Of a DNA stretch of 56,148 nt, positions 9,788 to 56,148 are shown piece by piece (position 1 is the first letter of the stretch; each line of letters starts with the position of its first letter). Under the pieces are notes generated by a model. That model was not told where the DNA came from, did not search any database, and worked only from the letters and a program-made list of their open reading frames with translations. The translations under genes and the position numbers were made by a program. This stretch comes from Thermoleophilaceae bacterium (GTDB lineage Bacteria > Actinomycetota > Thermoleophilia > Solirubrobacterales > Thermoleophilaceae). Where the stretch lies: the NCBI GenBank assembly GCA_034663685.1, contig JAXDJC010000219.1:1-56148 (forward strand), written 5' to 3'.

Positions 9788-9817
9788 GACTTGACACACC
9801 CATCGTCTCAGACCTGC

Positions 9818-13344: not shown

Positions 13345-13837
13345 GGCCGGCCCGGTTGCCTTCCTCGACCGCGACGGCACGATCAACCACCCGGCCGCGC
13401 CCGGCGAGTACATCGAGAGCTGGGACCAGTTCCGCTTCCTGCCGCGCGCGCCGGAGGCCATCGCCCTGCTGCGCGGCGCCGGCTTCAGGATCGTGGTGGT
13501 GACCAATCAGCGCGGCATCGCGCTCGGGCGGATGAGCGAGGCGGACCTGGAGGACATTCACCGGCGCATGCTCGCCGAGCTCGAGGGGGCGCATGCGTTC
13601 GTGGACGCCGTCTATCACTGCCCCCACGGCCACGGAGAGTGCGACTGCCGCAAGCCCCAGCCGGGGATGCTGCTGCGGGCGAGCCGCGAGCTGCCCGGGG
13701 TGGACCTCGAGCGCTCCGTGATGATCGGCGACTCCGAGAGCGACATGGAGGCGGGTAGGCGGGCCGGATGCCGCTGCGTGCGCATCGGCCCCGACCGCTC
13801 GCTCTACGACGCGGCCGTCGGGCTAACCGGCACCTGA
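13334..13837 (+). CDS. gmhB: D,D-heptose 1,7-bisphosphate phosphatase (HAD-IIIA)
   Basis: The GTG start overlaps the gmhA end. FLDRDGTIN, VVVTNQ, CxHxxxxxCxCRKP zinc motif and GDSESDMEAG. Confidence 0.8.
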   Translation: MPAEAGPVAFLDRDGTINHPAAPGEYIESWDQFRFLPRAPEAIALLRGAGFRIVVVTNQRGIALGRMSEADLEDIHRRMLAELEGAHAFVDAVYHCPHGHGECDCRKPQPGMLLRASRELPGVDLERSVMIGDSESDMEAGRRAGCRCVRIGPDRSLYDAAVGLTGT

Positions 13838-38094: not shown

Positions 38095-39438
38095 ATGGTG
38101 CATGCCGTCGAGGTGAGCGGGATCACCGCCGCGCGGCCGGCGGCGCGGACGCACGGTTCGCTTTCGCGCGCGCGTGCGCTGGTGGCCCGTCCGGGCCGCG
38201 TGGCCTGGACGATCCTCCTCGTGGCTCTGGCAGCTCGGGTGGCGGATGTCCTCCTGACCGACTTCGTCCCGATCTTCGACCCCGGCGACTACGCGCGCCA
38301 TGCCCGGTCGCTCTCTGAGGGCCACGGGTACCCGGGCTCTCTCATATCCGGCGTCGACGACCCCACCGCCCTCAGGATGCCGCTGTACCCGCTCTTCCTG
38401 GCCGCGATCGATCCTCTGACCGGCGACCGCTGGGAGCTGGCCCGGCTCGCTCAGGCACTGCTGGGCACGGTCACGGTAGGCCTGATCGGGCTGATCGGCA
38501 CGCGGCTCTTCAGCCGGCGCGTCGGGCTCGTGGCAATGGCCCTAGCGGCGGTGTTCCCGCCGTTCATCGTGCTCACCGGCACGCTCATGAGCGAGAACCT
38601 GCTTCTCCCGCTCGAGCTCGGAGCGCTCCTCGCCCTGCTGGAGCACCTGCGGTCTGACCATCGCTATCGCTGGGCCGCCGTGGCCGGGGTCCTGTCCGGG
38701 CTCGCGATGCTCACGCGGCCCAACGCCGCCGTGCTGCTACTGGCCCTGGTCCTCGGCATTCTGAGCACACGGCCACGGCACTGGCGCGGCGTCGCCGTGC
38801 TCGTGGTCGCGGCGGCGATCGTCTACGCGCCGTGGCCGATCCGGAACGCCGTGACGCTGAAGGAGTTCGTGCCGGTCTCCACCGAGTTCGGCCTGGTCGC
38901 CGAGAGCACGTACAACGACTACTCGGCCCACCTCGGGAAGAAGCCGGGCGTGTGGGTGGCGCCGTGGCAGCAACCCCCCGGGGCGGCCCAGGCCATCCTG
39001 GCCGACAAGTCGCTGAGCGAGCCGGAGATGGACCGCAGGCTCACGGCCGAGGCGCGGCACTTCGTCCGCCACCATCCGACCTACCCCGCCGAGGTCGGCT
39101 TCTGGAACTCCATGCGGCTGCTGCACATCACCCAGCCCAACCAGTGGTGGTACTGGCAGAACCTCGGCCTCTCAAGGAACAACGGCGCGTTCACGCAGTG
39201 GGGCTTCTATCCGGTGCTGCTGCTCGCGCTCGTGGGCATCTTCCTTCCCGGCGTCACGCGCGCCCCGCGCTGGATCTGGCTCACGCCGATCCTCATGTGG
39301 GTCAGCCTGGTCTTCGTCAACAATGAGCCGCGCGCGCGGGCTCCGATCGACCCGTACTTCCTGCTGCTCGCCGCGCTGGGGGCCGTGGCCCTCTGGGATC
39401 GACTGCGGCGGCGAGAACCGGCGGCGGCACCGGCTTGA
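38095..39438 (+). CDS. ArnT/PMT-like GT-C glycosyltransferase (GT39/GT83-like)
   Basis: DPGDYARHARSLSEGHGY...RMPLYPLFLAAI first-loop pattern and about 11 TM helices. Confidence 0.8.
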   Translation: MVHAVEVSGITAARPAARTHGSLSRARALVARPGRVAWTILLVALAARVADVLLTDFVPIFDPGDYARHARSLSEGHGYPGSLISGVDDPTALRMPLYPLFLAAIDPLTGDRWELARLAQALLGTVTVGLIGLIGTRLFSRRVGLVAMALAAVFPPFIVLTGTLMSENLLLPLELGALLALLEHLRSDHRYRWAAVAGVLSGLAMLTRPNAAVLLLALVLGILSTRPRHWRGVAVLVVAAAIVYAPWPIRNAVTLKEFVPVSTEFGLVAESTYNDYSAHLGKKPGVWVAPWQQPPGAAQAILADKSLSEPEMDRRLTAEARHFVRHHPTYPAEVGFWNSMRLLHITQPNQWWYWQNLGLSRNNGAFTQWGFYPVLLLALVGIFLPGVTRAPRWIWLTPILMWVSLVFVNNEPRARAPIDPYFLLLAALGAVALWDRLRRREPAAAPA

Positions 39439-42224
39439 CCACTCGCAGACGGCTGGCGGCGCTGATCGCAGCCGGCACCGTCGTGCGCCTGATCCTGGCC
39501 GTGACGACGAAGGGCCAGGGGTATGACATGCACTCACTGGAGGTCGTGCGCCGCACCCTCGCGGACTACGGGCTGCACGTCTACGGCCACGTGAACGAGG
39601 GCGGCCTCCACTGGCCCTACGGCTCCGGGTTCTTCCCCTTCGTCGCGCTCGCCGGTGAGCTGGCGGGCGGCAGCAGCACGGCGTTCCACGCCCTGGTCCG
39701 GGTGCCCTCGATCGCGGCGGACGCCGCCCTGGCGTGGCTTGTCCAGGACTACCTGCGCGGCCGGGGCGCCCACGACAACGCCCGGCTCGGCGCCGCCGCG
39801 GTGGTCGCGCTGGGCCCCGTCTTCGTCGCGATCTCGGGCTTCCACGGCCAGATCGACTCGCTCGCCATCCTCCCGGCGGCGGCGGCGCTGGTCGTGTGGG
39901 AGCGAATGGACGGCGAGCGTCGTGCGCTGTTCGCCGGCGCGCTGATCGGCGTCGGCGGAGCGATCAAGACGGTTCCGCTATTGATGGTGCTTGCCCTCGC
40001 TCCGACCTCGCGTTCTTGGCGCGAGCTCGCCGGTCTCGCCGTCTCGGCGGTCGCCGTGCCGCTCATCGTCGTCGCGCCGTTCCTGGCCACCACTCCGCAC
40101 GACGTCTTGCGCGTGCTGCGCGGCTACCACGGCTACCCGGGCCAGGGCGGCCTGAGCCTGGCGGTCCAGCCCAAGCTGGCACTGCCGTGGCTGAAGGGCC
40201 TGCACGCCGCGCCCGTGCACTACTCGCAGCTCACCCAGCACATCTTCTTCCACGCGGGCCTGGTGATCGACGCGGTGGTGGTCGCGGTGGCCGCCTTCCT
40301 CGTTCGCTACCGGCCGCCGCCCGCCCTCGCTGCCACGGTTCTGTGGCTCGCCGTCCTCGCGCTCGCGCCCGGGTTCTTCTTTCAGTACCTGATCTGGGGC
40401 CTGCCGTTCTTCGTGATGGCGGGCTACACGCGGTCCGCCGGGCTGCTCCAGCTCGCGTCGCTTCCACCGATGCTCATGTACTACCTCGCGCCCTGGGGCT
40501 CGAACGGGCCTGCGTACGTGTTCATCGCGATTCAACTGGCCACATGGATCTGCATGCTGCTTGCGCTGGTGCATGTGGGCCGCGGCATCGTCGCGGGCGG
40601 GCAGGGGCCCGCTCGACTCCTGCCCCAGATCCTGCCGGCCGCGCTCGGCCGGACGGCCCTGCGCAGGCTCGAGCTGTCCATGTTCGGGGCAGTCGCGGTG
40701 TTCTCGGTCGTCCCGCTCGCCGTGCTCGTCCGCCACGCGGGCGCACACGATCTCGTGTTCTCCGGCGTGGACGGGCCGTTCCCCGCAGACCAGTTCCAGT
40801 ACCTGTCCTGGGTCAGGCAGTTCGGCGACCACCTGCTGGTGGCGAACCAGTTCGACATCGCGGCGAGCAGCCGGGTGTTCCTCCACCCGATGTTCCTGGT
40901 GAGCGGCCTGCTCTCCAGCTTGGGCGTGAGCACGTCCCTGGCGTACCTGTTGTGGAAGCCGGTTGCCGTGGTTCTCCTCTGCCTCGGCTTCCGCGCGTAC
41001 GTGACGCGCTTCCTGACCGCCGGCTGGGAGCGGGCCTGCGCCCTTTTGATCGCTCTATTTTGCGCTGTGCCGGTCGCTGCGCTGATGGACTGGGGGTCGA
41101 TCGACTCGAGCCCGGACTTCTTCTCCGGCGTGGCCCGGGTCACGGCGGAGCTGTTCCCCGCCGAACTGACCTGGGGCTATCTGCCGACGGTGATCGCGGT
41201 CGGGCTGATGCCGCTGTTCCTGCTCGGCGCCGAGCGACTCGTCCGGCCCTTCTCCGAGAAGGCCGACCCGCACAGGCGACGCAACACGCTCCTCCTCGCC
41301 GCGTGCGGGGCGACCGTCTCGTGGCTGCATCCCTGGCAGGGGGAGATCGTGCTGGTCACCGTTCTCGGGGCAATCGCGGTCGCCGGCTTCGGGCGCCGGT
41401 ACCTGGCCCTGGCGGCCCCCGTGGTGGCCGTCGCGGCCCCACTCGCCTACTACGCGGTTCTGTCGCGTGCCGACTCCGCGTGGAAGCTCGCCCAGCACGC
41501 GAACGCAGTGAGCGGACAGGCCGGAGGCCATATCCCAGCCGGGGCCACCCTGCTGGCCCTCGCCCCGATCGCCATTCCCGCGCTGTGGGGGATCCGCGGC
41601 AGGCCGGCCGACTTCGGTGAGCGAATGCTCCTGCTCTGGCCGGTGGGCACCGCCCTCGTCTTCATGCTCTTGTCCCCGTCCTTTCCCCAGCACGCGTTCG
41701 AGGGGCTCAGCCTTCCGCTGGCGATTCTCGCCGTCCGTGGCCTTGCCCGGATCGAGCGCCCGGTCGCGTGGACGCTGGCGTTTGCGCTGGCGCTGACCAT
41801 CCCGGGGACCGCGTGGGCGCTGGACACCATGCGCAAGAACATGAACTCGGGCCAGCAGCCCTTCTATCTGACGCGGGACGAGCAGAGTGCGTTCGACTAC
41901 CTGCGCATGTCGCGCGAGCCGGGGGGCGTTCTGCCGACCGCCTACCTCGGCCCGCTCGTGCCCGACCGAACCGGCCGGCGGACATGGGTGGGCCACGTGT
42001 CGTGGACGCCCGATTTCGAGGGCAGGCTGCGCGAGACCGAAGCGCTCTTCTACGGAAAGCTGCCGTCTGACCGCGCCGTGGCCCTGGTCCGGTCATCCGG
42101 CGCCTCGTTCGTGCTCAGCGACTGCAAGCATCGCGCCGATCTGCTCCCGGCCCTGGATCCGATCGTGGTGGGTGTCCGGCGGTTCGGATGCGCCACCGTG
42201 TACCGGGTGCGCGGGCGCCAGTAG
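39435..42224 (+). CDS. 929-aa fusion membrane protein: N-terminal GT87/DUF2029-like module plus a C-terminal module paralogous to 48042-49598
   Basis: The TTG start overlaps the upstream TGA. The N-terminal about 400 aa form a polytopic domain with HWPYGSGFFPF. The C-terminal about 500 aa align with the 518-aa protein (DGPFPADQFQYLSWVRQFG with DGPFAGDQLQYLSWIREAG; VRRFGCATVYRVRG with VRHFGCATIYELRR). Confidence 0.75.
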   Translation: MTTRRRLAALIAAGTVVRLILAVTTKGQGYDMHSLEVVRRTLADYGLHVYGHVNEGGLHWPYGSGFFPFVALAGELAGGSSTAFHALVRVPSIAADAALAWLVQDYLRGRGAHDNARLGAAAVVALGPVFVAISGFHGQIDSLAILPAAAALVVWERMDGERRALFAGALIGVGGAIKTVPLLMVLALAPTSRSWRELAGLAVSAVAVPLIVVAPFLATTPHDVLRVLRGYHGYPGQGGLSLAVQPKLALPWLKGLHAAPVHYSQLTQHIFFHAGLVIDAVVVAVAAFLVRYRPPPALAATVLWLAVLALAPGFFFQYLIWGLPFFVMAGYTRSAGLLQLASLPPMLMYYLAPWGSNGPAYVFIAIQLATWICMLLALVHVGRGIVAGGQGPARLLPQILPAALGRTALRRLELSMFGAVAVFSVVPLAVLVRHAGAHDLVFSGVDGPFPADQFQYLSWVRQFGDHLLVANQFDIAASSRVFLHPMFLVSGLLSSLGVSTSLAYLLWKPVAVVLLCLGFRAYVTRFLTAGWERACALLIALFCAVPVAALMDWGSIDSSPDFFSGVARVTAELFPAELTWGYLPTVIAVGLMPLFLLGAERLVRPFSEKADPHRRRNTLLLAACGATVSWLHPWQGEIVLVTVLGAIAVAGFGRRYLALAAPVVAVAAPLAYYAVLSRADSAWKLAQHANAVSGQAGGHIPAGATLLALAPIAIPALWGIRGRPADFGERMLLLWPVGTALVFMLLSPSFPQHAFEGLSLPLAILAVRGLARIERPVAWTLAFALALTIPGTAWALDTMRKNMNSGQQPFYLTRDEQSAFDYLRMSREPGGVLPTAYLGPLVPDRTGRRTWVGHVSWTPDFEGRLRETEALFYGKLPSDRAVALVRSSGASFVLSDCKHRADLLPALDPIVVGVRRFGCATVYRVRGRQ

Positions 42225-42430: not shown

Positions 42431-44182
42431 TTGAGCGTGGTGCTCGGCGTGTCGTGCCACTACCACGACTCTGCCGCCGCGTTGCTCCACGACGGCGCGC
42501 TCGTGGCCGGGGCGCAGGAGGAACGGTTCTCGCGCCGCAAGGGGGACGCCCGGCTGCCGGTGCACGCCATGCGCTTCTGCGTCGACTCCGCTGGCCTCGA
42601 CGCCGGGGATGTCGACTACGTGGCCTTCTACGAGAAGCCGCTGCTCAAGTTGGAGCGCACGCTGGCGTCGATGCGCCGGGCATGGCCCGCGTCCGCCTCG
42701 GTGGCCCGGGCGAGCATGAGCAACTGGATGCGGTCGCGCCTGTGGATCCGCGACTCGCTGAGCCGGGCGGCCGGGGTCCCGCCGGACCGCGTGCTGTTCG
42801 TGCGACACCACGAATCCCACGCCGCCAGCGCGGCCCTCTGCGCGCCGTTCGACGAGTCCGCGGTCCTCACGATCGACGGAGTGGGGGAGTGGGCGACCGC
42901 GGCCATCGGCCGCGCAACCACGCCGCGGACCGGTGGCGGCGCATCGTCGATCGACCTGGATCTCGAGCTGCGCTTCCCGCACTCGATCGGACTCTTCTAC
43001 TCGGCGCTCACGCAGTTCCTCGGCTTCGAGGTCAACGAGGGCGAGTACAAGGTGATGGGGTTGGCCGCCTATGGGGAGCCGCGGTTCCGGTCGGCCTTCG
43101 ACCGCGTGGTGCGCCTGCACGCCGACGGGAGCGTCGAGCTGGCGCTCGAGTACTTCGGCTTCCTCACGTCGCTCGAGCGCATGTTCAGCCCGAGGCTCGC
43201 CGACCTCCTCGGCGTGCAGCCGCGCGAGCCGAGCGCGCCCTTCGACGTGGACAACCCGGCCGGCACCGACGCCGTCTACGCGGACATCGCGGCGAGCGTG
43301 CAGGAGCTGACCGAGGACGTGGTCGTGGCCATGGCGCGGCAGGCGAACCGGCGGGCGGGGTCGAGGAACCTCACGATGGCCGGCGGAGTCGCGTTGAACG
43401 GAATCGCGAACCGCCGCGTGCTCGACGAGGCGGGCTTCGACAACCTCTTCATCCAGCCCGCCGCCGGCGACGGAGGGGGCTCCCTCGGAGCCGCGCTCTT
43501 CGTGGAGCACGTCGTGCTCGGGCGCCCGCGGGCATTTGTGATGGAGGATGCCTACTGGGGCGCCGAGTACGGCGACGACGAGATTGAGGCCGCGCTCCGC
43601 CGCGAGGGTGTCGACGCGGAGCGCCTGGACGACGACGAGCGCCTGGCCGAGCTCGTGGCGAGCGAGCTCGTCGAGGGCAGGATCGTGGGCTGGTTCCAGG
43701 GTCGCTTCGAATGGGGCCCGCGCGCGCTCGGCAACCGCAGCATCCTCGCCGACCCGCGCGACCCGGCGATGAAGGCCACGGTCAACGCCCGCATCAAGTA
43801 CCGCGAGCCGTTTCGCCCGTTCGCCCCCTCGATGCTTCGGGAGCACGCCGGCGAGTTCGTGGACGAGCGCTACCTCGGCCAGCAGCCGTCGAAGTTCATG
43901 CTGATGGTGCTGCCCGCGCTCGGCGAGGCGGGCGAGCGAATCGCCGCGGCGGTCCACGGAGGGACGCTCAGGATCCAGGCGGTCGACTCGGAGGTGAACC
44001 CCGCCTACGCCCGGGTGCTGGGGGCCTTCTGCGAGCGGACCGGGGTCCCGGGGGTGCTCAACACGTCGTTCAACCTCAAGGGCGAGCCGATCGTCGCGTC
44101 GCCGGCGGACGCGCTGAGCACGTTCGCCCGCAGCGGCATCGACACGTTGGTAATGGGGAGCCATGTCGTCTCGAAGCACTGA
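42431..44182 (+). CDS. Carbamoyltransferase (NodU/CmcH family)
   Basis: LGVSCHYHDSAAALLHDG, QEERFSRRK and the C-terminal LNTSFNLKGEPIV motifs. Confidence 0.92.
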   Translation: MSVVLGVSCHYHDSAAALLHDGALVAGAQEERFSRRKGDARLPVHAMRFCVDSAGLDAGDVDYVAFYEKPLLKLERTLASMRRAWPASASVARASMSNWMRSRLWIRDSLSRAAGVPPDRVLFVRHHESHAASAALCAPFDESAVLTIDGVGEWATAAIGRATTPRTGGGASSIDLDLELRFPHSIGLFYSALTQFLGFEVNEGEYKVMGLAAYGEPRFRSAFDRVVRLHADGSVELALEYFGFLTSLERMFSPRLADLLGVQPREPSAPFDVDNPAGTDAVYADIAASVQELTEDVVVAMARQANRRAGSRNLTMAGGVALNGIANRRVLDEAGFDNLFIQPAAGDGGGSLGAALFVEHVVLGRPRAFVMEDAYWGAEYGDDEIEAALRREGVDAERLDDDERLAELVASELVEGRIVGWFQGRFEWGPRALGNRSILADPRDPAMKATVNARIKYREPFRPFAPSMLREHAGEFVDERYLGQQPSKFMLMVLPALGEAGERIAAAVHGGTLRIQAVDSEVNPAYARVLGAFCERTGVPGVLNTSFNLKGEPIVASPADALSTFARSGIDTLVMGSHVVSKH

Positions 44183-45200
44183 CCTGCCGTCGGGCGGGCT
44201 CCACGAGCGCGCGCCGCAGATGCGCGACTACGACGCACTCGACCCTGTCTTCCATCCCTACCTCGGCTTCAGCTCGCCGCACAACTTCCGCTCGCCCTCG
44301 GTCTGCACCGACTCGCTGGGCTTCCGCCAGTCGGAATTCGAGTCGAAGGTGGTCAGCACCGAGAGCCACGGGGCCGGCGACGGGTTCGGAGTGGCCCTCG
44401 GCGGCTCGTTCGCGTTCGGTGTCGGGGCCACTCACGACCGGCATTCGTTCGCCTCGCGGCTCGGCGCCGAGTCGGGCCGCCCGTACCTGAACCGCGCGGT
44501 GCGGGCCGGGAACTCGATGCAGGAGCTGCTAGCCGCGCTCCCGGTGCTCGATCGCGCGGACGAGGTGGTTATCTGCACCGGCGTGAACAACCTCGCGCTG
44601 ACGCTGTGGAGCTCGCGCACCTACGACGGTCTGGGCCCGCTCTTCTACGACGAGCCGATCGCGGCGCTTGCCGGCCGCAGGCTCGACGAGCTGGCCGGGG
44701 CGCTCGGAGGGAGCGCCGGGCTCCGGAGCACCTTCAGGGGCGGCCTGGCGGCGGCGCGCGGCCGCGACCGGCCGTCGGGGCCCCCGCGCCCGCGCCTCGA
44801 CCCCGAGGCGATCGTGTCCGCGGCCGCCGGCCGGCACCTCCGCGACGTGGCCCTCGTCGCCGCGGCCGCTCGGGTGGCGACCCGCGTGATCTTCGTGGTG
44901 CAGTCCTTCGGCGATCCGAGGATCCGAGAGCTGCACCACGACGAGCGCGCGCTGATCCAGCCGCTCGACGGCAGCTCGGGCGACTGGTGGACCTCGACGC
45001 TCGAGTTCGTGGGCGAGCACTGGGCCGCGTACACGGAGACACTTCGCTCGGGCTGCGACGAGATCGATGTGCGGTTCGGCGCGCTCGACGCGACCGAGTT
45101 CGAGGGCTGGGCGTACGTGGACCGGGTCCACATGACCGACCACGGCCAGCAGCAGGCAGCCCGGAGAATTGTGGAGATGATGAGCAATGGCGCTGCTTGA
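44163..45200 (+). CDS. SGNH/GDSL-like hydrolase or acyltransferase with a variant block I
   Basis: GGSFAFGVGA (block I, Asp replaced by Gly), TGVNN (block III) and DRVHMTDHG (block V D-x-x-H). 20-nt overlap with the carbamoyltransferase. Confidence 0.55.
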   Translation: MSSRSTDLPSGGLHERAPQMRDYDALDPVFHPYLGFSSPHNFRSPSVCTDSLGFRQSEFESKVVSTESHGAGDGFGVALGGSFAFGVGATHDRHSFASRLGAESGRPYLNRAVRAGNSMQELLAALPVLDRADEVVICTGVNNLALTLWSSRTYDGLGPLFYDEPIAALAGRRLDELAGALGGSAGLRSTFRGGLAAARGRDRPSGPPRPRLDPEAIVSAAAGRHLRDVALVAAAARVATRVIFVVQSFGDPRIRELHHDERALIQPLDGSSGDWWTSTLEFVGEHWAAYTETLRSGCDEIDVRFGALDATEFEGWAYVDRVHMTDHGQQQAARRIVEMMSNGAA

Positions 45201-48041: not shown

Positions 48042-49598
48042 TCACCCCGGCTGGCGCCGGAGCTCGTAGATCGTGGCGCAGCCGAAGTGCCGCACGCTCG
48101 CGACGACAGAAGGCGCCGTCACGCCGAGGTCCACCCGCGAGCGGCAGGCGGACAGCGCGAAGCGCGCCCCCGAGCGGCGGGCGAGGTCGGCGGCGGCCGC
48201 CCCCCTGAGCCCTCCGGTGAACAGCGAGTTCAGGAGACGCATCCGGTGGGGGAAGTCGCGAGTCCAGGACGGGTGCCCCGCCCAGACCGGGCGGCCGCTG
48301 TGCACCGGCACGGCCACGGCGATGGCCGGGTCCGCCAGCACGCCTCCCGGCCGCGGATCGCGGTGCAGCGCGTCCATCGCGCGCATCTCGTCGGGCCGCA
48401 GGTAGTGCGCCTGCATCCCCGTCCTCACCTGGTTGCGCATGTCGTCGGCCGCGAAGAAGGCGCCGGGGACCACGAGAAGGGCGGCCGCAAGGGCTCCGAG
48501 CGCGGCCGGCAGCCGGACAGCCTGCCAGCCGCGCACGGACAGCACGGCGAGCGGCAGGCTGATTCCCTCGAGCGCGTGACCTGGAACCTGACGGAGCCCC
48601 GCGTAAACGGCCAGCATCGCCAGGGGCCACAGGATCAACGCGCGGTCCACGAAGTCCCGCGGCGGGCGCTTGAATGCGCCGAAGATCGCCATTGCGAGCA
48701 GCGGCCCGAGCCCGGCTGCGACGACCCACACGGCGAGGTGGGGCTCGACGTTCTGCCGCCGGGCGACCCCCCAGGCCGCATCGAGCTCGGAGAGCCCGAG
48801 GTAATAGGTGAGGGGAAGCAGCGTGGCGGCCACCGGCACGAGGAGCACCCGGGCCGGCGGCCGGAAGCGCTCCCAGGCGATCAGCCCGATCGTGACCAGG
48901 ATGAGCACCTCCCCCTGCCACGGGTGGAGCCAGGCAGCGGCCAGCCCGGCGAGCGCGGCCCCGGCGACCGCGCGCGTGCGGGAGCGCCCCTCTGCGGTCA
49001 GCGCGCGCTCGGCCGCCAGCAGGTAGGCCGGCATCGCCCCGACGGCGATGGCGGTCGGCAGATAGCCCCACAGCGACCCCGAGATGAACACCTCGCCGAC
49101 CACCTCGGCGAGCTTCGGCGGCAGCGTGGAGCTGCCGCTGCCGGTCCGGCCGATCAGCTCTCCGAAGGGCGGGAAGTAGAACAGCGCGAGGACCAGCGCC
49201 GCGGTTCGGGCACCCGCTCCCTCGACCGTGCGGCGCACGAACAGCGCGAAGCCCGCGAACAGCACGAGGACGGCGACGGGCTTCCAGATCAAGTAGGCGG
49301 CCTGAATTCCCAGCCCCAGCGCCCACAGAGCGCCGCTCACCACGTGCATCGGGTGCAGGAAGACGGCGTCGCTCGGCGGCAGGTCGAACTCGTTCCCGGC
49401 GAGCACCTCGCTGCCGGCTTCCCGGATCCACGAGAGGTACTGGAGCTGGTCGCCCGCGAACGGGCCGTCGGAGCCGGCGAAGGTGTCCCCGGTGACCGCG
49501 GCATGGCGGAGCATCCACGCCAGCGGGGCCAGGCTCCAGAGGCTCAGAAGCACCAGGGTCGCGGCTTCGCCGGCCGAGAGGCTGCGCAGCCGGGCCAT
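48042..49598 (-). CDS. Polytopic membrane protein, stand-alone paralog of the C-terminal module of 39435-42224 (putative GT-C-like)
   Basis: ATG at 49598. About 12 TM helices. Conserved DGPFAGDQLQYLSW loop and a C-terminal soluble domain. Confidence 0.75.
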   Translation of the reverse strand: MARLRSLSAGEAATLVLLSLWSLAPLAWMLRHAAVTGDTFAGSDGPFAGDQLQYLSWIREAGSEVLAGNEFDLPPSDAVFLHPMHVVSGALWALGLGIQAAYLIWKPVAVLVLFAGFALFVRRTVEGAGARTAALVLALFYFPPFGELIGRTGSGSSTLPPKLAEVVGEVFISGSLWGYLPTAIAVGAMPAYLLAAERALTAEGRSRTRAVAGAALAGLAAAWLHPWQGEVLILVTIGLIAWERFRPPARVLLVPVAATLLPLTYYLGLSELDAAWGVARRQNVEPHLAVWVVAAGLGPLLAMAIFGAFKRPPRDFVDRALILWPLAMLAVYAGLRQVPGHALEGISLPLAVLSVRGWQAVRLPAALGALAAALLVVPGAFFAADDMRNQVRTGMQAHYLRPDEMRAMDALHRDPRPGGVLADPAIAVAVPVHSGRPVWAGHPSWTRDFPHRMRLLNSLFTGGLRGAAAADLARRSGARFALSACRSRVDLGVTAPSVVASVRHFGCATIYELRRQPG

Positions 49599-49647
49599 CG
49601 GCCGCACCCTACATCCTGGTCTTCGCTCACGTGTACAGTGCCCGCCG

Positions 49648-50433
49648 ATGCGCCTACCGGGGGGTCGCCAGCGTGCTTCGAAGCCATTCGCGACCGAGCT
49701 CCCGGAGTGGCTGCCGCCGCTCACCACGCAGGGCCTTAGAGCGCGCCTTCAGGAGCAGGTCTTCGGTAGGCGCGGATGGGGCTTCCACGACGTCCTCACG
49801 CACGAGGTCTCCGAGGTCCGGATCGCACGCGTCGTGCAGTGGGTGCGCGACTTCGCAGGTGACCCGGCTCACCTGCGGATCATCGACCTCGGTGCCTACG
49901 AGGGCGCCCATTCGCTGGCCCTGGCGCGCGCGGGCGCTGAGGTCGTGTCCATAGAGGGCCGTGAGGACAACGCGCGCCACATCCTCGCGGCCAAGGAGGC
50001 GGAGGGCCTTGACAACCTGAGCGTGGTGGTCGGCGATGCTCGGCACGAGATCGCCCAGCACGGGATCTTCGACGTGGTGGTCTGCCTCGGGCTCCTCTAC
50101 CACTTCACCGCCGCCGAGCTCGGGCCGTTCCTTGACGCGGTGGTGGCCACGAACTGCGAGCTGGCGATCGTGGAGACGCAGATCGGCCTTTCATCGCCTA
50201 AGGGGTTTGCGTATCGCGGGCACACCTACCGCGGTATCGAGTCGCCCGAGGTGGTGGAGCGACCCGCGGCGTCGCTCAACAATCCGGTGAGCTTCTGGCC
50301 GACCAAGCCGTCCCTCCTCAACCTCCTGTCGCGGGCCGGATTCACGTCGATCGCGGAGGCGCGGGTGCCGAGCATCGCTGTGCTCGCCGCGTTCCAGGAT
50401 CACGTCGCGCTGATCGCCAAGCGCTCGCGGTAG
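49648..50433 (+). CDS. Class I SAM-dependent methyltransferase
   Basis: IIDLGAYEGAHSLALA motif I and FDVVVCLGLLYHF. ATG at 49648. Confidence 0.75.
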   Translation: MRLPGGRQRASKPFATELPEWLPPLTTQGLRARLQEQVFGRRGWGFHDVLTHEVSEVRIARVVQWVRDFAGDPAHLRIIDLGAYEGAHSLALARAGAEVVSIEGREDNARHILAAKEAEGLDNLSVVVGDARHEIAQHGIFDVVVCLGLLYHFTAAELGPFLDAVVATNCELAIVETQIGLSSPKGFAYRGHTYRGIESPEVVERPAASLNNPVSFWPTKPSLLNLLSRAGFTSIAEARVPSIAVLAAFQDHVALIAKRSR

Positions 50434-50463: not shown

Positions 50464-51144
50464 ATGCACGTCCCGAGCCGCAGGATCGCCAACCGCCGCG
50501 TGCGTGCCGTGCTCCAGGGCGTCTTCCATCGCATCGACAGGCTGCGTGAGGACACGCTCGCGATCGAGGCCGGCGACCCGCTCGCGGGGCGCTTCGCCGA
50601 GTTCGGCGAGGGGTCGCGGATCGCCACTCCGCGCGTGGCGCTCATCAACCCCGAGCTCGTGGCGCTCGGGCGCGATGTGGAGATCCGCTCCGGCGTCTGC
50701 ATCGAGGCGTACGCCCCCGCCGGCACGGTGGCGCTGCGCTTCGGCGACCGGGTGGTGGTGGGCCACAACGTGCGCTTCGTGGCGGTGAACGGCATCGAGA
50801 TCGGCGAGGACGCCGGCATCGGCCACGGCAGCACCGTGGCCGACACGATCCACGACTGGACGGAGGTGCTCGACGGCGTGCCGGCCAGCACCTCGTCGTT
50901 CGTCGACGGCCCGCCCCTGCGCATCGAGCGCGGCGCGTGGATCGGCAACAACTGCCAGCTCTACCGGGGGATCACGATCGGCGAGCGCGCGATCGTCGCC
51001 CCGGGCAGCGTGGTGACCCGCGACGTGCCGGCCGAGACGATGGTCTCCGGCAACCCGGGCCGGCGCGTGCCCTACCCGAAGGTGCTGAGCGGCAGCGGCG
51101 AGCCCGCCGACGGGGCGGCCGAGCCTACGGACGCCGAGCGGTGA
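50464..51144 (+). CDS. Left-handed beta-helix (hexapeptide-repeat) acyl/acetyltransferase
   Basis: Hexapeptide repeats (IGEDAGIGHGSTV, IERGAWIGNNCQL, ITIGERAIVAPGSVV) ending VSGNPGRRV. Confidence 0.8.
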   Translation: MHVPSRRIANRRVRAVLQGVFHRIDRLREDTLAIEAGDPLAGRFAEFGEGSRIATPRVALINPELVALGRDVEIRSGVCIEAYAPAGTVALRFGDRVVVGHNVRFVAVNGIEIGEDAGIGHGSTVADTIHDWTEVLDGVPASTSSFVDGPPLRIERGAWIGNNCQLYRGITIGERAIVAPGSVVTRDVPAETMVSGNPGRRVPYPKVLSGSGEPADGAAEPTDAER

Positions 51145-52141
51145 CGAACGAGCCGGCGTTGAACGGCGACATCCGGTGGTGCTCGGGGCCCTCGAAGCCG
51201 GCCTCCTCGAGCATGCGGAAGGTCTGCTCGACGGAGTAGGCGCGCCCGCCGCGGTAGACGAGCAGCATCAGGAGGTTGTGCAGCGCGGGCCATACCGGGC
51301 CGTCGCCCTGCTCGTTGAGGAACATCGCGTGCACCACGCCGAGCCCGCCGGGCTCGACCGCGGCGTGCGCCTTGCGCAGGATCGAAACGCACGTGTCCCA
51401 GTCCTCCTGGTGGAGGGTGTTCGAGACGAGCGCGGCGTCGAAGCCGGTCGGGAAGTCGTCCTCGTGGTAGGAGCCGGCGACCGTCGTGACGCGCTCCGCG
51501 AGGCCGTGGTCGGCGATCACCTCGTCCGCGATCGCCACCACCTCCGGCAGGTCGAACACCACGCATTCGAGCTCCGGGTTGGCCTCGGCCAGCAGGATCG
51601 AGTAGGTGCCGGGGCCGCCGCCCGGGTCGATCAGCCGCCTGCGCCCGCCCAGGTCGAGGTGCCGGGCCAGCTCCTTGCCGGGGCCGATCGCGTAGTCGTG
51701 CATCCCGATGATGAAGCGGCGCGTGTACTCCTCGGACTGGCCGAGCTTCTCCTCCGGCACCTCGGCGGGCTCGCCGGTGCGCACGGAGTCGGCGAGCTTG
51801 CCGAAGGTCTGGTTCCAGCCGCCCAGCAGCGACACCCAGGTGTGGAGCGACTCGGGGCGACCGGACACGAGGAACTCCTCGGCCGCCAGGCCGTTGGCGT
51901 ACTTCTCGCCATCGTGCTCGAGCAGGTCGATCGCCACGAGCGCGCCCAGGAGGCGGGCGGTCGAGTCCTCGTCCGTCCCCAGCTCCGCCGCCACCTCGGC
52001 CGCGCTCAGCGAGCGACCGGAGGCGAGCAGGTCGAACACGCCCAGCTCGTTGGCGGCGAACAGAGACTGCGCCGACCAGCCGCCTATGGCGAGGCGGTTG
52101 AGCTTTACGCGGGCCTGGATCCGCCGGCGGTCAAGCGCCAT
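51125..52141 (-). CDS. SAM-dependent O-methyltransferase (Methyltransf_2 type with an N-terminal dimerisation/winged-helix domain)
   Basis: LGVFDLLASGRSLSAAEVAAELG N-domain and LIDPGGGPGTYSILLAE SAM motif. 11-nt overlap with the carrier-protein gene. Confidence 0.85.
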   Translation of the reverse strand: MALDRRRIQARVKLNRLAIGGWSAQSLFAANELGVFDLLASGRSLSAAEVAAELGTDEDSTARLLGALVAIDLLEHDGEKYANGLAAEEFLVSGRPESLHTWVSLLGGWNQTFGKLADSVRTGEPAEVPEEKLGQSEEYTRRFIIGMHDYAIGPGKELARHLDLGGRRRLIDPGGGPGTYSILLAEANPELECVVFDLPEVVAIADEVIADHGLAERVTTVAGSYHEDDFPTGFDAALVSNTLHQEDWDTCVSILRKAHAAVEPGGLGVVHAMFLNEQGDGPVWPALHNLLMLLVYRGGRAYSVEQTFRMLEEAGFEGPEHHRMSPFNAGSFVTARRP

Positions 52142-52376
52142 CGCGGCTGCGATCCACGAGCGACGCGATGGCGGTCAGCGACTTGAAATTGTCCGCGAGC
52201 AGGTCGTCCTCGCCGATGCCGACCCCGAACTTCTCCTCGACGAAGTCCACGACCTCCATCACCCCGAGCGAGTCGATCACGTCCGGGAACAGCGGATCGT
52301 CGTCGCCCAGCTCGGCGCTTTCGTCGAAGAGAAACTGCCTGCGGATGAAGTCGCGGAGGACATCGGTGTCGGCCAT
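52131..52376 (-). CDS. Acyl/peptidyl carrier protein
   Basis: 81 aa and acidic, with an IDSLGVMEV phosphopantetheine-attachment serine motif. Confidence 0.85.
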   Translation of the reverse strand: MADTDVLRDFIRRQFLFDESAELGDDDPLFPDVIDSLGVMEVVDFVEEKFGVGIGEDDLLADNFKSLTAIASLVDRSRDGA

Positions 52377-52402
52377 GGCGCGCGCGTAGGATAATCGCGC
52401 CG
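52377..52402. promoter_or_regulatory. 26-bp divergent control region with back-to-back -10-like hexamers
   Basis: GGCGCGCGCGTAGGATAATCGCGCCG. Plus strand: TAGGAT/GATAAT, ending 7-10 nt before GTG 52403. Minus strand: TATCCT, 11 nt before ATG 52376. This is the only AT-rich patch locally. Confidence 0.35.
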
Positions 52403-53491
52403 GTGCACTCGCCGCTCCTGGCCGAAGACCGGCATGGCTTCGTCGACGAGGTGCGGCGATTCGCCTGCCACGAGCTGGTTGACCCCGCGCTGGTCGAGCG
52501 CGACGCCGCGGGCGAGTTCTGGGCCGAGGGCTGGCGGCGCTGTGGCGCGATGGGCCTGTGCGGCCTTCCCGTGCCGGAGGAGCTGGGCGGGGTGGGCGCC
52601 GACCGGGTGACCACGGCCGCCGCGCTCGAGGCGCTCGGCTACGGCTGCACCGATGCCGGTCTGGTCTTCTCCCTGAACGCGCACCTCTGGAGCGCGGTGG
52701 TGCCGATCTGGCGCTACGGGAGCGGCGAGCAGCGCGAGCGTTACCTGCGCAGGCTCTGCTCCGGCGAGTGGGTGGGCCTCCACGCGATGACCGAGCCGGA
52801 CTCCGGCAGCGACGCGTTCGCCCTGTCCACCGTCGCCGAGCGCGACGGCGACGGGTTCGTGCTGCGCGGGCGCAAGACGTTGATCACCAACACGCCGCTG
52901 GCGAAGCTCTACATCGTGTTCGCCCGCGCGCCCGGCACCGAGGGCGCGCTCGGGGTGAGCGGCTATCTCGTGGAGGCCGGCGCGGAGGGCGCGAGCGTGG
53001 AGCGGCCGGCGGAGAAGATGGGCCTGCGCACCTCGCCGATGGCCGACCTCGTACTCGACGACGTGCGGGTGGGGCCCGATGCGCTGCTCGGCAAGGCCGG
53101 CCGCGGCGCCTCGATCTTCGCCTCGTCGATGGAGTGGGAGCGGCTGCTGATCATGGCCGCGCAGCTCGGCGCGCTGGAGCACTCGCTCGAGGATGCCGCC
53201 GCGGCCGCGCGCAGCGGCGCGGAGGAGCCGCACCCGGACACGCTGGCGAACACGGGGGTGGCGCTGGCCGCGGCGCGAGCGCTGCTCTACGAGACGGCCG
53301 CCGCCTACGACGCGGGCGAGACGCGGCCCGGTCCCGCCGCCGCGGTCAAGCTGCTCGCCTCGGAGACGGTGCTGCGCGCCGCGATCGACCTCTCCGACGA
53401 CCGCCGCCTGCGCGACGCCGTCGGCGGCCGCCTCTACTCCGGTACCTCGCAGCTCATGCGCAGGCTGGTGGCGCGGGACATGGGGCTGTGA
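52403..53491 (+). CDS. Acyl-CoA dehydrogenase-family flavoprotein (predicted to act on a carrier-protein thioester)
   Basis: AMTEPDSGSD and LITNTPLA motifs. Glu in MEWERL at the isovaleryl-CoA-dehydrogenase-type base position. C-terminal YSGTS replaces YEGT. Confidence 0.9.
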   Translation: MHSPLLAEDRHGFVDEVRRFACHELVDPALVERDAAGEFWAEGWRRCGAMGLCGLPVPEELGGVGADRVTTAAALEALGYGCTDAGLVFSLNAHLWSAVVPIWRYGSGEQRERYLRRLCSGEWVGLHAMTEPDSGSDAFALSTVAERDGDGFVLRGRKTLITNTPLAKLYIVFARAPGTEGALGVSGYLVEAGAEGASVERPAEKMGLRTSPMADLVLDDVRVGPDALLGKAGRGASIFASSMEWERLLIMAAQLGALEHSLEDAAAAARSGAEEPHPDTLANTGVALAAARALLYETAAAYDAGETRPGPAAAVKLLASETVLRAAIDLSDDRRLRDAVGGRLYSGTSQLMRRLVARDMGL

Positions 53492-54987
53492 GCGCCGCCG
53501 CGTTCACGCTCGACGGGCTGCTCGCGCGCTCGGCCGAGCGGCTGGGCGACCGGCGCGCGCTGGTGGACCCGGACGGCTCGCTCACATACGCGGAGCTGGA
53601 GCTCGACGTGGCCCGCCGCGCCGCGGCACTGCGCGAGATCGGGGTGGAGCCGGGCGACCGCGTGGCGGTCTGGGCGCCCAAGTCGGCCCGCACGGTGGCC
53701 ACCGTCTACGCCGTGATGCGCACCGGCGCGGCGTACGTGCCGGTGGACCCGCTCTCGCCGGCGATGCGTGCGGAGGGGATCGTGCGCGACGCCGGCTGCC
53801 GCGTGCTGTGCGCGGACGCCAAGCGGCTCGACTCCGTGGAGGCCCCGGCGCGGCTCGACGTGGCGGCCGACGTGACCGCGCTCGATCCCCTGCACGCGCC
53901 GGTCGCCTGCGAGTCCGACCTCGCCTACATCCTCTACACGTCGGGCTCGACCGGCCGGCCCAAGGGCGTGATGCTGACCCACCGCAACGCGCTGGCCTTC
54001 GTGGAGTGGACCGTCGGGCGTTTCGGCGTCGGCGAGGAGGACCGGCTCTCGAGCCACGCGCCGTTCCACTTCGATCTGTCGATCTTCGACCTCTACGGCG
54101 CCTCCATGGCCGGCGCGTCGCTGCACCTGATGGCGCCCGGCGAGGAGGGGCTCGGCGCGAGCATGGCGGCCGGGATCGAGCGCGAGGGCATCAGCGTCTG
54201 GTACTCGGTGCCCTCGGCGCTCACGCTGCTGGCGGGCGCCGCAGACCCGGCGCAGCTCGAGAGCCTGCGCGTGGTGCTGTTCGCCGGCGAGGTCTTCCCG
54301 ATGAAGCACCTGCGGCGGCTCCGCGAGCTGGTGCCGGGCGCCACGCTGGCCAATCTCTACGGGCCGACCGAGACCAACGTCTGCACCTACCACGTGGCTG
54401 ACGAGCTGCCTGACGGCGACGAGCCGCTCCCGATCGGGCGGCCGTGCGAGAACCAGGAGGCGTTCGCGCTCGACGACGCGCTGCGGCCGGTTGCCGAGGG
54501 CGAGGTGGGCGAGCTGTGGGTGCGCGGGCCGACGGTAATGAAGGGCTACTGGGGCGACGCCGAGCTGACCGCCGAGCGGCTGCGCCAGAACCCGCTGGAC
54601 GACCGCTTCCCCGACCCGGCGTACCGCACGGGCGACGTCGTCCGGGTGCTGCCCGGCGGCGGCTTCGCATTCGTGGGGCGCCGCGACCACCAGGTCAAGA
54701 GCCGCGGCTACAGGATCGAGCTGGGCGAGATCGAGTCGGTGCTGCTCGCCCACCCGGGCGTGAGCGAGGCTGCCGTGGTGGCGGTGCCGGACGAGCGGAT
54801 CGGCAACCGGTTGATCGCGTTCGTGGCCGTCGGCGACGGGGTGGGGGAGACCGACCTACGCCGGCACTGCGCCGCCGCGTTGCCGCGCTACATGGTGCCC
54901 GCCTCGGTGGGGGTGGGCGGCGAGCTGCCCCATACCTCGACCGGCAAGATCGACCGGCAGGCGCTGGAGGAGCGCGCCGGCGGCTGA
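53488..54987 (+). CDS. Stand-alone NRPS-type adenylation enzyme (amino acid-AMP ligase)
   Basis: GTGA overlap with the upstream gene. Core motifs: LAYILYTSGSTGRPKGV, FHFDLSIFDLYG, NLYGPTETNV, GELWVRGPTVMKGYWG, YRTGD, GRRDHQVKSRGYRIELGEIE, STGKIDRQAL. Confidence 0.9.
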   Translation: MSAAAFTLDGLLARSAERLGDRRALVDPDGSLTYAELELDVARRAAALREIGVEPGDRVAVWAPKSARTVATVYAVMRTGAAYVPVDPLSPAMRAEGIVRDAGCRVLCADAKRLDSVEAPARLDVAADVTALDPLHAPVACESDLAYILYTSGSTGRPKGVMLTHRNALAFVEWTVGRFGVGEEDRLSSHAPFHFDLSIFDLYGASMAGASLHLMAPGEEGLGASMAAGIEREGISVWYSVPSALTLLAGAADPAQLESLRVVLFAGEVFPMKHLRRLRELVPGATLANLYGPTETNVCTYHVADELPDGDEPLPIGRPCENQEAFALDDALRPVAEGEVGELWVRGPTVMKGYWGDAELTAERLRQNPLDDRFPDPAYRTGDVVRVLPGGGFAFVGRRDHQVKSRGYRIELGEIESVLLAHPGVSEAAVVAVPDERIGNRLIAFVAVGDGVGETDLRRHCAAALPRYMVPASVGVGGELPHTSTGKIDRQALEERAGG

Positions 54988-55002: not shown

Positions 55003-56148
55003 TCAGGCCGCCGGAGCGGGCGCCCGGCGCAGGTAGCCGACGGCCTCGCGCAGCAGCTCGCGCTCGGCCACCAGCGTGCCGGCCACGACCACCGCGGAGT
55101 AGGCGGCGGCCTCGGCGATCGCGCGTCCCGGCCCGCGGTGGCCGCCGGCGAGCGCCCGCTCCGCCAGGATCATCAGCGCGGCCGGCACCGTGGGCACGAT
55201 CGCGCGGGTCACGTGGCTGAGGATCTTCAGCCCGGGGAACAGGCGCAGCAGGTACGTGAGCCGCACCACCATCAGCGCCCCCGTGCCGGCGGCCAGCGCG
55301 ATCGCGTAGCCCACGAGGCCCCTGTCCAGCACGAGCGGGACGCCCGCCGCCACGAGCACCACCGCACCCACCACGGCTGCCACCGCGAGCGGCCGCGTCT
55401 CGCCCCGCGCGCGGGCGAAAGCCGTCCAGTTGAACCCGATCTGGTCGACGGCGGCGGTCACGCCGAGCACCTGAAGCAGCGGGATCGCGATCACCCAGGT
55501 GCTCCCGAACACGTGGCGGAGGATGTCCGAGGCGAACAGCGCGAGCCCGATGCCCGCGGGGAAGCCCCAGAGCAGGGCGAGCCGGTTGGACTTGGAGAAC
55601 GACTCGAAGAGCAGGTCGGTCCGATCCTTGACCGCACAGATCGCCGGGTAGAGGGTCTGCGTGACGATGTCGTCCACGCGCCGGGAGTAGTTCGAGATCG
55701 TCGTCGACAGCGAGATGGCGCCCACGGCGGCGGTGCCGATCGCGCGGGCCGCGGTGGTGATCAGCACCTGGCCGGTGAGCAGGCCGCTCACCGATCCGAC
55801 CCACAGCGGCCAGGAGAAGCTCGAGTACTCGGCCAGCGCGCCGCGCTCCCAGCGAAAGCGCAGCTTGTAGGGCGAGTTCCGCACCGTCACGGTCGCGCCG
55901 GTCACGCTCCCGGCCACGCCGCCGATCACGAGTGCCCAGACCCCGGCGCCGGCGGCGGCGAGCCCGACGGTCACCACGAACGAGACGATCAGCTCCCACG
56001 CCTGCAGCGCGCGCTGCTTGAGGAAGTCCATCCGCCTGTAGAAGACCCAGATCGGCGTGTGCAGCGCCAGCAGCGGGAAGGTGAGGCTGAGCACGATGCC
56101 CGGCACGAGGATCCGGGGCTCGTCGTAGAGCATCGCGAACAGCGGGAT
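55003..56148 (-). CDS. Oligosaccharide/polysaccharide flippase (Wzx, MOP superfamily); the N-terminus lies beyond the window end
   Basis: The frame is open to the window edge. Multi-TM with a Wzx-like C-terminal half. Confidence 0.8.
   Translation of the reverse strand: MPLFAMLYDEPRILVPGIVLSLTFPLLALHTPIWVFYRRMDFLKQRALQAWELIVSFVVTVGLAAAGAGVWALVIGGVAGSVTGATVTVRNSPYKLRFRWERGALAEYSSFSWPLWVGSVSGLLTGQVLITTAARAIGTAAVGAISLSTTISNYSRRVDDIVTQTLYPAICAVKDRTDLLFESFSKSNRLALLWGFPAGIGLALFASDILRHVFGSTWVIAIPLLQVLGVTAAVDQIGFNWTAFARARGETRPLAVAAVVGAVVLVAAGVPLVLDRGLVGYAIALAAGTGALMVVRLTYLLRLFPGLKILSHVTRAIVPTVPAALMILAERALAGGHRGPGRAIAEAAAYSAVVVAGTLVAERELLREAVGYLRRAPAPAA

Follow-up and report, generated by a model that had tools for sequence, protein, structure and literature searches.

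A predicted proline-oxidation cassette with a coupled methyltransferase in an actinobacterial Wzx/Wzy-type glycan locus

In the genome of an uncultured, high-GC actinobacterium, genes resembling those that convert proline into a carrier-bound pyrrole lie inside a polysaccharide cluster, and the question is what such a gene set could do there. The window, i.e., the whole stretch of DNA analyzed (56,148 nucleotides), contains the cassette close to its right end (Table 1). A first-pass annotation had described an adenylase, an acyl-CoA dehydrogenase (ACAD)-family flavoprotein and a carrier protein as a trio whose oxidized aminoacyl group might be transferred onto a cell-surface glycan.

Layout of the cassette and its surroundings

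Table 1. Features of the cassette and of the neighboring glycan locus, in window coordinates
Feature	Position	Strand	Description
Remaining Wzx/Wzy-type surface-glycan locus	18089-50433		Pfam scans
LbH (hexapeptide-repeat) acyltransferase	50464-51144	+	226 aa; Hexapep; WcaF/maltose O-acetyltransferase type
Family-2 (PF00891) SAM methyltransferase	51125-52141	-	338 aa; Pfam Dimerisation and Methyltransf_2
Carrier protein, type II	52131-52376	-	81 aa; Ser36 in VIDSLG; PF00550 (PP-binding)
Divergent spacer	52377-52402		26 bp; between carrier gene and ACAD gene
ACAD-family flavoprotein	52403-53491	+	362 aa; all three ACAD domains; predicted prolyl-S-carrier-protein dehydrogenase, short form
Stand-alone adenylation enzyme	53488-54987	+	499 aa; TIGR01733; predicted L-proline--[carrier protein] ligase
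Wzx-type MOP flippase	55003-56148	-	PF13440 and NF007773 model; N-terminus beyond window end

The stop codon of the ACAD gene and the start codon of the adenylase gene share the sequence GTGA (53488-53491), and the methyltransferase and carrier genes overlap by 11 nt. On re-checking the sequence, the coordinates, sizes and strands of the trio, both overlaps and the divergent spacer were all as first annotated. Pfam scans likewise recovered the flanking LbH acyltransferase, the Wzx flippase and many glycosyltransferases, and, in agreement with the earlier description, neither the window nor the close loci contained a PKS or NRPS condensation gene. The glycan locus encodes an NDP-sugar epimerase/dehydratase, seven GT2 and three GT4 glycosyltransferases, Wzy_C, GT87 and PMT_2 proteins, a carbamoyltransferase and several methyltransferases, together with a weak GDSL-like match under the Pfam cut-off. 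The GC3 of the cassette ORFs (0.94-0.97) is that of the coding sequence of the host genome.

The spacer between the two divergent gene pairs reads GGCGCGCG-TAGGATAAT-CGCGCCG and includes a -10-like element 7 nt upstream of the ACAD GTG start. The motif CGCGTAGGATAATC is kept at an equal distance from the ACAD start in three loci (L001, L007 and L008); a sigma-70 consensus scan gave no hit.

Predicted activation and oxidation of proline

The adenylase scored 399 bits against the amino-acid adenylation model TIGR01733 (cut-off, 317). Among solved structures, its top single-domain match was PltF (6o6e; 335 bits), and the next entry with a single adenylation domain scored 274 bits. Alignment to PltF, the proline ligase 7thn and DltA, in which nine of the ten code positions were alignable, gave the specificity code DLFYLALVCK (D196, L197, F200, Y239, L264, A266, L290, V298, C299 and K487). 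PltF (DLLYLALVC) is identical at eight of these nine positions, and the ninth, F200, agrees with the 7thn enzyme (DLFYIAWVC). The code read by eye in the first-pass annotation, DLFVLALVCK, was right at nine positions and wrong at the fourth, where the correction of V to Y brings the enzyme closer to the proline enzymes; the likeness to stand-alone proline ligases suggested there was borne out, and the code is not of a non-proline type. Across 15 family members the pattern is DL[FLH]Y[LVN]A[LW]VCK; at all nine alignable positions, three members are identical to PltF. The exosortase-A-associated acyl-CoA ligase model (TIGR03098) was rejected as an assignment, since the adenylase scored 306 bits against a cut-off of 592, with the best stretch covering residues 133-495 only. 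From homology and the code, it is well supported that the adenylase would activate L-proline and load it onto Ser36 of the carrier protein. The IDSLG motif noted earlier in the latter is present, with Ser36 as the phosphopantetheine attachment site, and its best solved-structure matches are stand-alone (type II) peptidyl carrier proteins, PigG and PltL among them.

The best NCBIfam models for the ACAD were RedW (NF045652; 287 bits) and PigA (NF053553; 274 bits), both below their equivalog cut-offs (650 and 500, respectively), and the best non-proline model scored 172 bits. Its top matches among solved structures were AnaB (4irn; 236 bits), PigA and the FAD-dependent dehydrogenase of 6cxt. The overall fold was predicted to be intact (pTM 0.86) and was nearest to that of AnaB (TM 0.91), as well as to that of PigA. 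With the RedW and PigA models leading by more than 100 bits and AnaB as the nearest structure, the flavoprotein does not, on these scores, side with ordinary acyl-CoA dehydrogenases. Thus, PltF, RedW/PigA/AnaB and type II carriers that include PigG and PltL are the nearest characterized relatives of the three proteins, which upholds the earlier reading of the trio as a thiotemplated proline-oxidation cassette. Both motifs attributed to the flavoprotein, YSGTS and MEWERL, were found, and Glu246 was invariant across 22 aligned sequences, including AnaB and PigA, aligning with the residue mutated to Ala in the PigA entry 6af6. In AnaB, PigA and Bmp3, the role of the catalytic Glu has been described (PMC10849742).

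Two deletions in the C-terminal domain leave the ACAD about 24 residues short, a shortening that the first-pass annotation overlooked. The 22-sequence alignment showed that the segments RxxFGxxIxxFQ and HGGxGY are deleted in the clade of the window ACAD, and two intermediate homologues (P0016 and P0018) carry degenerate forms of them. In the MCAD structure these segments contact the FAD of the adjacent subunit, and with both of them missing the activity could be altered or lost. The TEPxxGSD loop is retained in the window ACAD, and throughout the short clade this loop, Glu246 and the C-terminal YSGTS helix show little or no variation, as would be expected if catalysis were still under selection. 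The ACAD is predicted to oxidize the prolyl thioester, and the product is most likely pyrrolyl-2-carboxyl-S-carrier protein, a four-electron outcome that is not separable by sequence from the two-electron dehydroproline.

Conservation of the module and its neighbors

The conserved unit is larger than the trio and comprises four or five genes. Relatives of the cassette, all from metagenomes or metagenome-assembled genomes (MAGs), showed the order methyltransferase-carrier, divergent from ACAD-adenylase, in seven distinct loci; with the LbH gene placed beside the methyltransferase, the five-gene module of the window lies inside a Wzx/Wzy-type glycan locus. The methyltransferase was present in all seven close loci (66-85% identity among them), and its residues S240, H244, Q245 and E246 are invariant. 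In locus L004 the methyltransferase orthologue is 75% identical, whereas the ACAD is just 60% identical. The overlap of the O-methyltransferase gene with the carrier gene stood as first annotated, but its status as a mere flanking gene did not, since it belongs to the core of the cassette. More distant methyltransferase homologues (46-48% identity) adjoin an adenylase, an ACAD, a carrier protein, an LpxL-type acyltransferase and flavin halogenases bearing the WxWxIP motif; such enzymes typically mark pathways in which a pyrrole is modified while bound to a carrier. In two variant cassettes (L024 and L025), a PF03279 enzyme adjoins the carrier gene.

An LbH orthologue (51-79% identity) adjoins the cassette in six of the seven distinct loci at varying positions, and in L011 and L012 its gene shares 4 nt with the adenylase gene. 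Two LbH homologues (55% and 47% identity) were also found without any cassette, so the enzyme may simply O-acetylate the glycan in the ordinary way; we regard it as a candidate acyltransferase that would take the acyl group off the carrier protein and place it on a sugar. The enzyme adjoining cassette relatives varies and can be an LbH protein, a GNAT, a PF03279 enzyme or a member of DUF2334 that faintly matches polysaccharide deacetylases.

Cassette relatives adjoin glycan genes in MAGs of Actinomycetota, Frankiales, Chloroflexota and Eisenbacteria, and a Wzx orthologue is next to the cassette in L002 and L007. The close loci have homologous glycan genes in common, so part of the co-location among them has been inherited and did not arise independently. 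Moreover, L004 carries the four core genes and, translationally coupled to them, a gene for a GDSL/SGNH protein, but glycan genes are missing within 10 kb of the cassette, and L006 has the trio alone. Both the co-occurrence of the trio with glycan loci and its proposed link to a surface glycan are backed by gene context only, in several phyla but not at L004.

Proposed role in glycan acylation

A proline-to-pyrrole enzyme set inside a polysaccharide cluster suggests decoration of a sugar polymer, and no description of a pyrrole-type acyl decoration of such a polymer was found in the literature library searched. We propose, with roughly even confidence for and against, that proline is oxidized and methylated on the carrier and then passed to a lipid-linked sugar before flipping by Wzx; the transfer, the product and the site of methylation are all inferred. 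By homology and its code, the adenylase would transfer activated L-proline to Ser36 of the 81-aa carrier protein, and the ACAD, by homology, would take the C2 proton via Glu246 and oxidize the prolyl thioester. The conserved translational coupling suggests that the family-2 methyltransferase would then methylate the tethered heterocycle at N, C or O. Gene context points to a cytoplasmic acyltransferase, most likely the LbH enzyme, which could acylate a hydroxyl on one of the sugars of the lipid-linked repeat unit, after which the acylated unit might be flipped by Wzx and polymerized by Wzy. Pfam scans found no DegT-type aminotransferase in the glycan locus, which favors an ester over an amide linkage.

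The cassette resembles the pyrrole cassettes PltF/PltE/PltL, PigI/PigA/PigG, RedM/RedW/RedO, Bmp4/Bmp3/Bmp1 and CloN4/CloN3/CloN5 in gene sizes, translational coupling, a near-identical proline code, a type II carrier of about 80 aa and the position of the ACAD Glu. Unlike them, it lacks a PKS, an NRPS and a halogenase to partner with in the window, is paired with a family-2 methyltransferase within a Wzx/Wzy locus, and has the shorter ACAD that falls under the RedW/PigA equivalog cut-offs. The system with the nearest solved ACAD structure, AnaC/AnaB/AnaD, makes the anatoxin-a starter unit; the product of AnaB is a two-electron pyrroline that feeds a PKS, which the window lacks. To our knowledge, the sole established transfer of a carrier-bound pyrrole-2-carboxyl group to a sugar ester is that to the noviose of clorobiocin and coumermycin (CloN1, CloN2 and CloN7). 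There, the acceptor is a small-molecule glycoside, and the transfer uses an additional carrier protein together with acyltransferases of the alpha/beta-hydrolase type. No such proteins were seen next to the cassette among the Pfam-scanned window genes and the annotated close loci, and the window candidate is instead an LbH enzyme that would acylate the repeat unit of a polymer. Carrier-protein thioesters do donate acyl groups to glycans or glycolipids in the case of LpxA and LpxD (both LbH), LpxL (PF03279) and RfbK/L/M/N of the Vibrio cholerae O1 O-antigen, but what they donate is a fatty acyl or a tetronate group. In addition, unlike LpxA and LpxD, the window LbH protein resembles the WcaF/maltose O-acetyltransferase group, the known members of which use acetyl-CoA.

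The cassette might instead make a small molecule or building block, such as a methylated pyrrole-2-carboxylic acid freed by hydrolysis, its position among glycan genes being inherited linkage. The arrangements at L004 and L006 and the glycan genes common to the close loci would fit this, and ChmF provides a precedent, in which a carrier-bound pyrrole acid is released by hydrolysis (PMC10849742). We nevertheless consider it unlikely, given that the window and close loci lack other downstream natural-product genes as well as PKS and NRPS condensation genes, that cassettes adjoin differing kinds of glycan genes in several phyla, and that an acyltransferase adjoins the cassette in most loci. It is about equally improbable that the delivered group is not a pyrrole but a two-electron dehydroprolyl group of the AnaB type or, if the short flavoprotein is inactive, a plain or N-methylated prolyl ester resembling D-alanylation. 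AnaB, the nearest solved structure in both sequence and fold, is reportedly a two-electron oxidase, the two C-terminal segments are missing or degenerate, and, by our own reasoning, a prolyl thioester would readily accept a methyl group at its secondary amine. On the other hand, the catalytic elements are kept in the short clade, and the models of RedW and PigA, which are four-electron enzymes, score as high as AnaB. Distant relatives are also paired with flavin halogenases, the known carrier-bound substrates of which are pyrroles. A Dlt-like D-alanylation system, or activation of another amino acid or of a fatty acid, is very improbable: although DltA models gave 260-271 bits on the adenylase and the exosortase-A ligase model the 306 bits given above, all lie under their cut-offs (476, 560 and 592), five of the nine alignable code positions hold another residue in DltA, an ACAD plays no part in Dlt, and neither a DltB-type MBOAT nor DltD was matched among the 52 window proteins scanned with Pfam.

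Returning to glycan acylation, we tentatively extend the proposal, at rather less than even confidence, to the relatives: uncultured Actinomycetota and members of other phyla may decorate Wzx/Wzy polysaccharides with methylated pyrrole-2-carboxyl esters, some of them halogenated, using a dedicated carrier and LbH, LpxL-type or GNAT enzymes for delivery. If true, a type II NRPS module would serve in these bacteria as a glycan-tailoring device.

Gene layout and genomic surroundings

The trio of adenylation enzyme, acyl-CoA-dehydrogenase-family (ACAD) flavoprotein and carrier protein was located by ORF listing and GC3 frame analysis exactly where the first-pass annotation had placed it. The 26-bp divergent spacer, the GTGA stop/start overlap and the 11-nt overlap between the methyltransferase and carrier genes described there were all seen in the sequence. 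Housekeeping genes (hrcA, dnaJ, phoH, ybeY and era) lie at 1–17 kb of the window, and Pfam scans revealed a dense surface-glycan locus spanning approximately 18 kb to the window end. This locus encodes an NDP-sugar epimerase/dehydratase, seven GT2, three GT4, a GT87 and a PMT_2 protein, a Wzy_C polymerase-like protein and a Wzx flippase, together with tailoring functions: a carbamoyltransferase, several methyltransferases, a weak GDSL-like match and an LbH acyltransferase. With a carbamoyltransferase and at least four methyltransferases in the locus, extensive tailoring of the polymer is probable. The earlier statement that PKS and NRPS condensation genes are absent nearby was borne out, as Pfam scans detected no PKS, NRPS condensation domain or DegT-type aminotransferase among the window genes. 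The C-terminal ~510 aa of the GT87-containing protein shared 41% identity with a 561-aa membrane protein, so that the locus encodes two large polytopic paralogues. A row of kinase, isomerase and phosphatase genes upstream of the glycan locus corresponds to the gene set of a heptose-nucleotide pathway.

Coordinates of features in the window and in loci carrying relatives of the cassette or LbH homologues
Feature	Position	Strand	Description
Carrier protein	52131-52376	-	81 aa; PP-binding (Pfam/NCBIfam)
ACAD-family protein	52403-53491	+	362 aa; all three ACAD domains (Pfam/NCBIfam)
Adenylation enzyme	53488-54987	+	499 aa; AMP-binding; TIGR01733, 399 bits (cut-off 317)
Methyltransferase	51125-52141		PF00891, family 2
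Divergent spacer	52377-52402		GGCGCGCG-TAGGATAAT-CGCGCCG
IS1595-family transposase	8813-9799		low-GC patch (0.64 vs ~0.72) between housekeeping genes and glycan region
GHMP kinase, SIS isomerase, HAD phosphatase	11724-13837		in a row
GT87-containing protein	39435-42224		929 aa
Carbamoyltransferase	42431-44182		NodU/CmcH-type; inside glycan locus with at least four methyltransferases
GDSL-like protein	44163-45200		
Membrane protein	48042-49727		561 aa; no Pfam match
GDSL/SGNH protein	L004:12691-13494		overlaps end of adenylase gene by 4 nt
Halogenase-bearing cassettes	L024:5061-10265; L025:2067-8145		adenylase (proline-type), ACAD, carrier, methyltransferase homologue, 1-2 flavin halogenases (WIWFIP or WLWHIP), PF03279 acyltransferase
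Intein-interrupted SufB gene	L026:1857-4406		intein with LAGLIDADG endonuclease; beside a small methyltransferase-GT2-LbH insertion in suf operon

Within the spacer, an AT-rich CGCGTAGGATAATC element lies 7 nt before the GTG start codon of the window ACAD, flanked by GC-rich inverted arms, and is kept at that distance (7–8 nt overall) in three of the related loci (L001, L007 and L008). A promoter and terminator consensus scan of 50.3–56.1 kb detected nothing. The spacer pattern may fit a leaderless ACAD–adenylase transcript, with CGCGTAGGATAATC as its putative -10 box; the element may otherwise be an operator.

Proline-type adenylase and shortened flavoprotein

Among solved structures, the best single-domain match of the adenylase was PltF (335 bits), the L-proline--[L-prolyl-carrier-protein] ligase of pyoluteorin, and the next single-adenylation-domain entry scored 274 bits; linear gramicidin synthase entries outscored PltF as whole sequences because their two domains add up. 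The specificity code was read from HMMER alignments of the specificity-conferring segment to the sequences of PltF, DltA and 7thn, a second L-proline ligase, co-crystallised with PigG. The ten Stachelhaus positions were placed provisionally, by the GrsA sequence and numbering. The window adenylase gave DLFYLALVCK, compared with DLLYLALVC for PltF, DLFYIAWVC for the 7thn ligase and DLMTMCTVA for DltA. Nine positions of the code proposed by eye in the first-pass annotation stood, but the Val at position 4 should be Tyr (Tyr239) according to these alignments. All 15 family members from other loci conformed to DL[FLH]Y[LVN]A[LW]VCK, and three were identical to PltF at all nine positions that could be aligned. 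A full-text literature search with the code strings returned no match. It is very probable that the adenylase loads proline. The top solved-structure matches of the carrier protein were stand-alone peptidyl carrier proteins, including PigG, PltL and the carrier chain of 6cxt, which is probably the Bmp3–Bmp1 complex.

The two highest-scoring NCBIfam models on the ACAD protein were the RedW L-prolyl-PCP dehydrogenase (287 bits) and PigA (274 bits), both below their equivalog cut-offs; the best non-proline model was acryloyl-CoA reductase (172 bits). Against solved structures, AnaB scored 236 bits, PigA 186 bits and the 6cxt FAD-dependent dehydrogenase 178 bits, a score also reached by isovaleryl-CoA dehydrogenase. 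The structure predicted from 18 homologues (pLDDT 84, pTM 0.86) was closest to AnaB (TM 0.91), followed by PigA. The Glu noted earlier in MEWERL is present as Glu246 (in SMEWER); it is invariant among the aligned ACAD sequences and aligns with the Glu-to-Ala site of PigA entry 6af6. Close relatives (75–86% identity, 355–368 aa) share the short form of the window protein. This clade (approximately 76% protein identity, with saturated and GC3-biased synonymous sites) has kept the catalytic Glu, the TEPxxGSD loop and, at the C-terminus, the YSGTS helix; it has lost both the RxxFGxxIxxFQ segment and the HGGxGY loop. Both segments are present in longer homologues of 385–387 aa. They are intact in P0014, P0020 and P0024 and degenerate in the intermediate homologues P0016 and P0018, a graded loss along the lineage (P0001–P0018). 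In the MCAD structure, these segments presumably reach the FAD bound by the adjacent subunit, and cofactor binding may therefore be altered in the short form. Oxidation of some kind by the flavoprotein is likely.

A larger conserved unit and its acyltransferase partners

The conserved unit is larger than the trio. The divergent arrangement of methyltransferase–carrier and ACAD–adenylase genes was found in seven distinct metagenomic or MAG loci (L001, L002, L004, L007, L008, L011 and L012), across which methyltransferase identity was 66–85%; in L004, the methyltransferase was 75% identical and the ACAD only 60%. The methyltransferase carries an invariant S-x-x-L-H-Q-E motif, at what we assume to be the catalytic His site of family-2 O-methyltransferases. 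In view of the methyltransferase, a route through an N-hydroxypyrrole (ChmG/ChmH) followed by O-methylation was considered but found no support, as a second ACAD-like oxygenase was lacking and the window ACAD has Glu where ChmG has Met (PMC10849742).

In six of the seven close loci, an orthologue of the LbH acyltransferase (51–79% identity) adjoins the cassette. Its position varies: it lies beside the methyltransferase in some loci, and in L011 and L012 its gene shares 4 nt with the 3' end of the adenylase gene. LbH is a tentative candidate for the transferase of the acyl group. The subfamily is small (about 110 proteins at ≥42% identity) but not exclusive to the cassette, since members in L026 and L027 (55% and 47% identity) have no cassette nearby, and the window LbH could thus be an ordinary O-acetyltransferase. 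Among the close loci, L004 is the only one free of glycan genes; its coupled GDSL/SGNH protein may serve as a thioesterase, or may be another acyltransferase in place of LbH. GDSL proteins as a shared partner were ruled out, because the window and L004 proteins were not detectably related (E = 0.14).

The glycan genes of the close loci are partly homologous to those of the window, and more distant cassette relatives (39–49% identity) also lie among glycan-type genes: a GT4, a UDP-glucose dehydrogenase and a DUF2334 protein that faintly matches polysaccharide deacetylases in L005; an NDP-sugar dehydratase and a GT2 in L014 (Chloroflexota); a GNAT and a GT4 in L019 (Frankiales); another LbH directly downstream in L020 (Eisenbacteria); and two GT2 genes in L024. 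Against a glycan link, L004 has its four core genes and the GDSL gene with no glycan gene within 10 kb, and L006 has the trio alone. On balance, we favour a glycan as the destination.

Methyltransferase homologues at 46–48% identity occur in cassettes with added WxWxIP flavin halogenases, in which a PF03279 (LpxL-type) acyltransferase adjoins the carrier gene. The L024 and L025 cassettes suggest that a glycolipid or glycan receives halogenated pyrrole acyl groups. In characterised pathways, halogenases of this type have carrier-bound pyrroles as substrates, and their presence favours pyrrole as the product across the wider family; for the window, we lean slightly towards pyrrole over pyrroline.

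Proposed pathway and implications

Most likely, proline would be loaded on the carrier protein and oxidised to pyrrolyl-2-carboxyl-S-carrier protein, methylation would follow oxidation, LbH would esterify a lipid-linked sugar with the acyl group, and Wzx/Wzy would export the product. Since the carrier-bound donor is cytoplasmic, transfer would have to precede Wzx flipping.

Pyrrole cassettes built on carrier proteins have not, to our knowledge, been described outside the pathways of small-molecule antibiotics, pigments and toxins. In the literature searched, no report of pyrrole-acylated polysaccharides, O-antigens or exopolysaccharides, or of this module, was found. The enzymology itself is familiar. 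The novelty lies in the glycan-locus setting, in the obligatory methyltransferase and the partner acyltransferases, and in the shortening of the flavoprotein. Every relative found came from metagenomes or MAGs (16 of 16 MAGs for the genome-collection loci), and tests will thus need gene synthesis.

If the module tailors an envelope polysaccharide, the repertoire of acyl substituents known from bacterial glycans would gain an aromatic heterocyclic ester, which in relatives may be halogenated, and surface hydrophobicity, phage and antibody recognition and UV absorbance would probably be altered. Type II NRPS parts would then have been recruited into glycan tailoring, in loci that mining tools now would label "NRPS-like". 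For study, the module also provides a family of methyltransferases associated with carrier-bound pyrroles, as well as a natural short-form ACAD.
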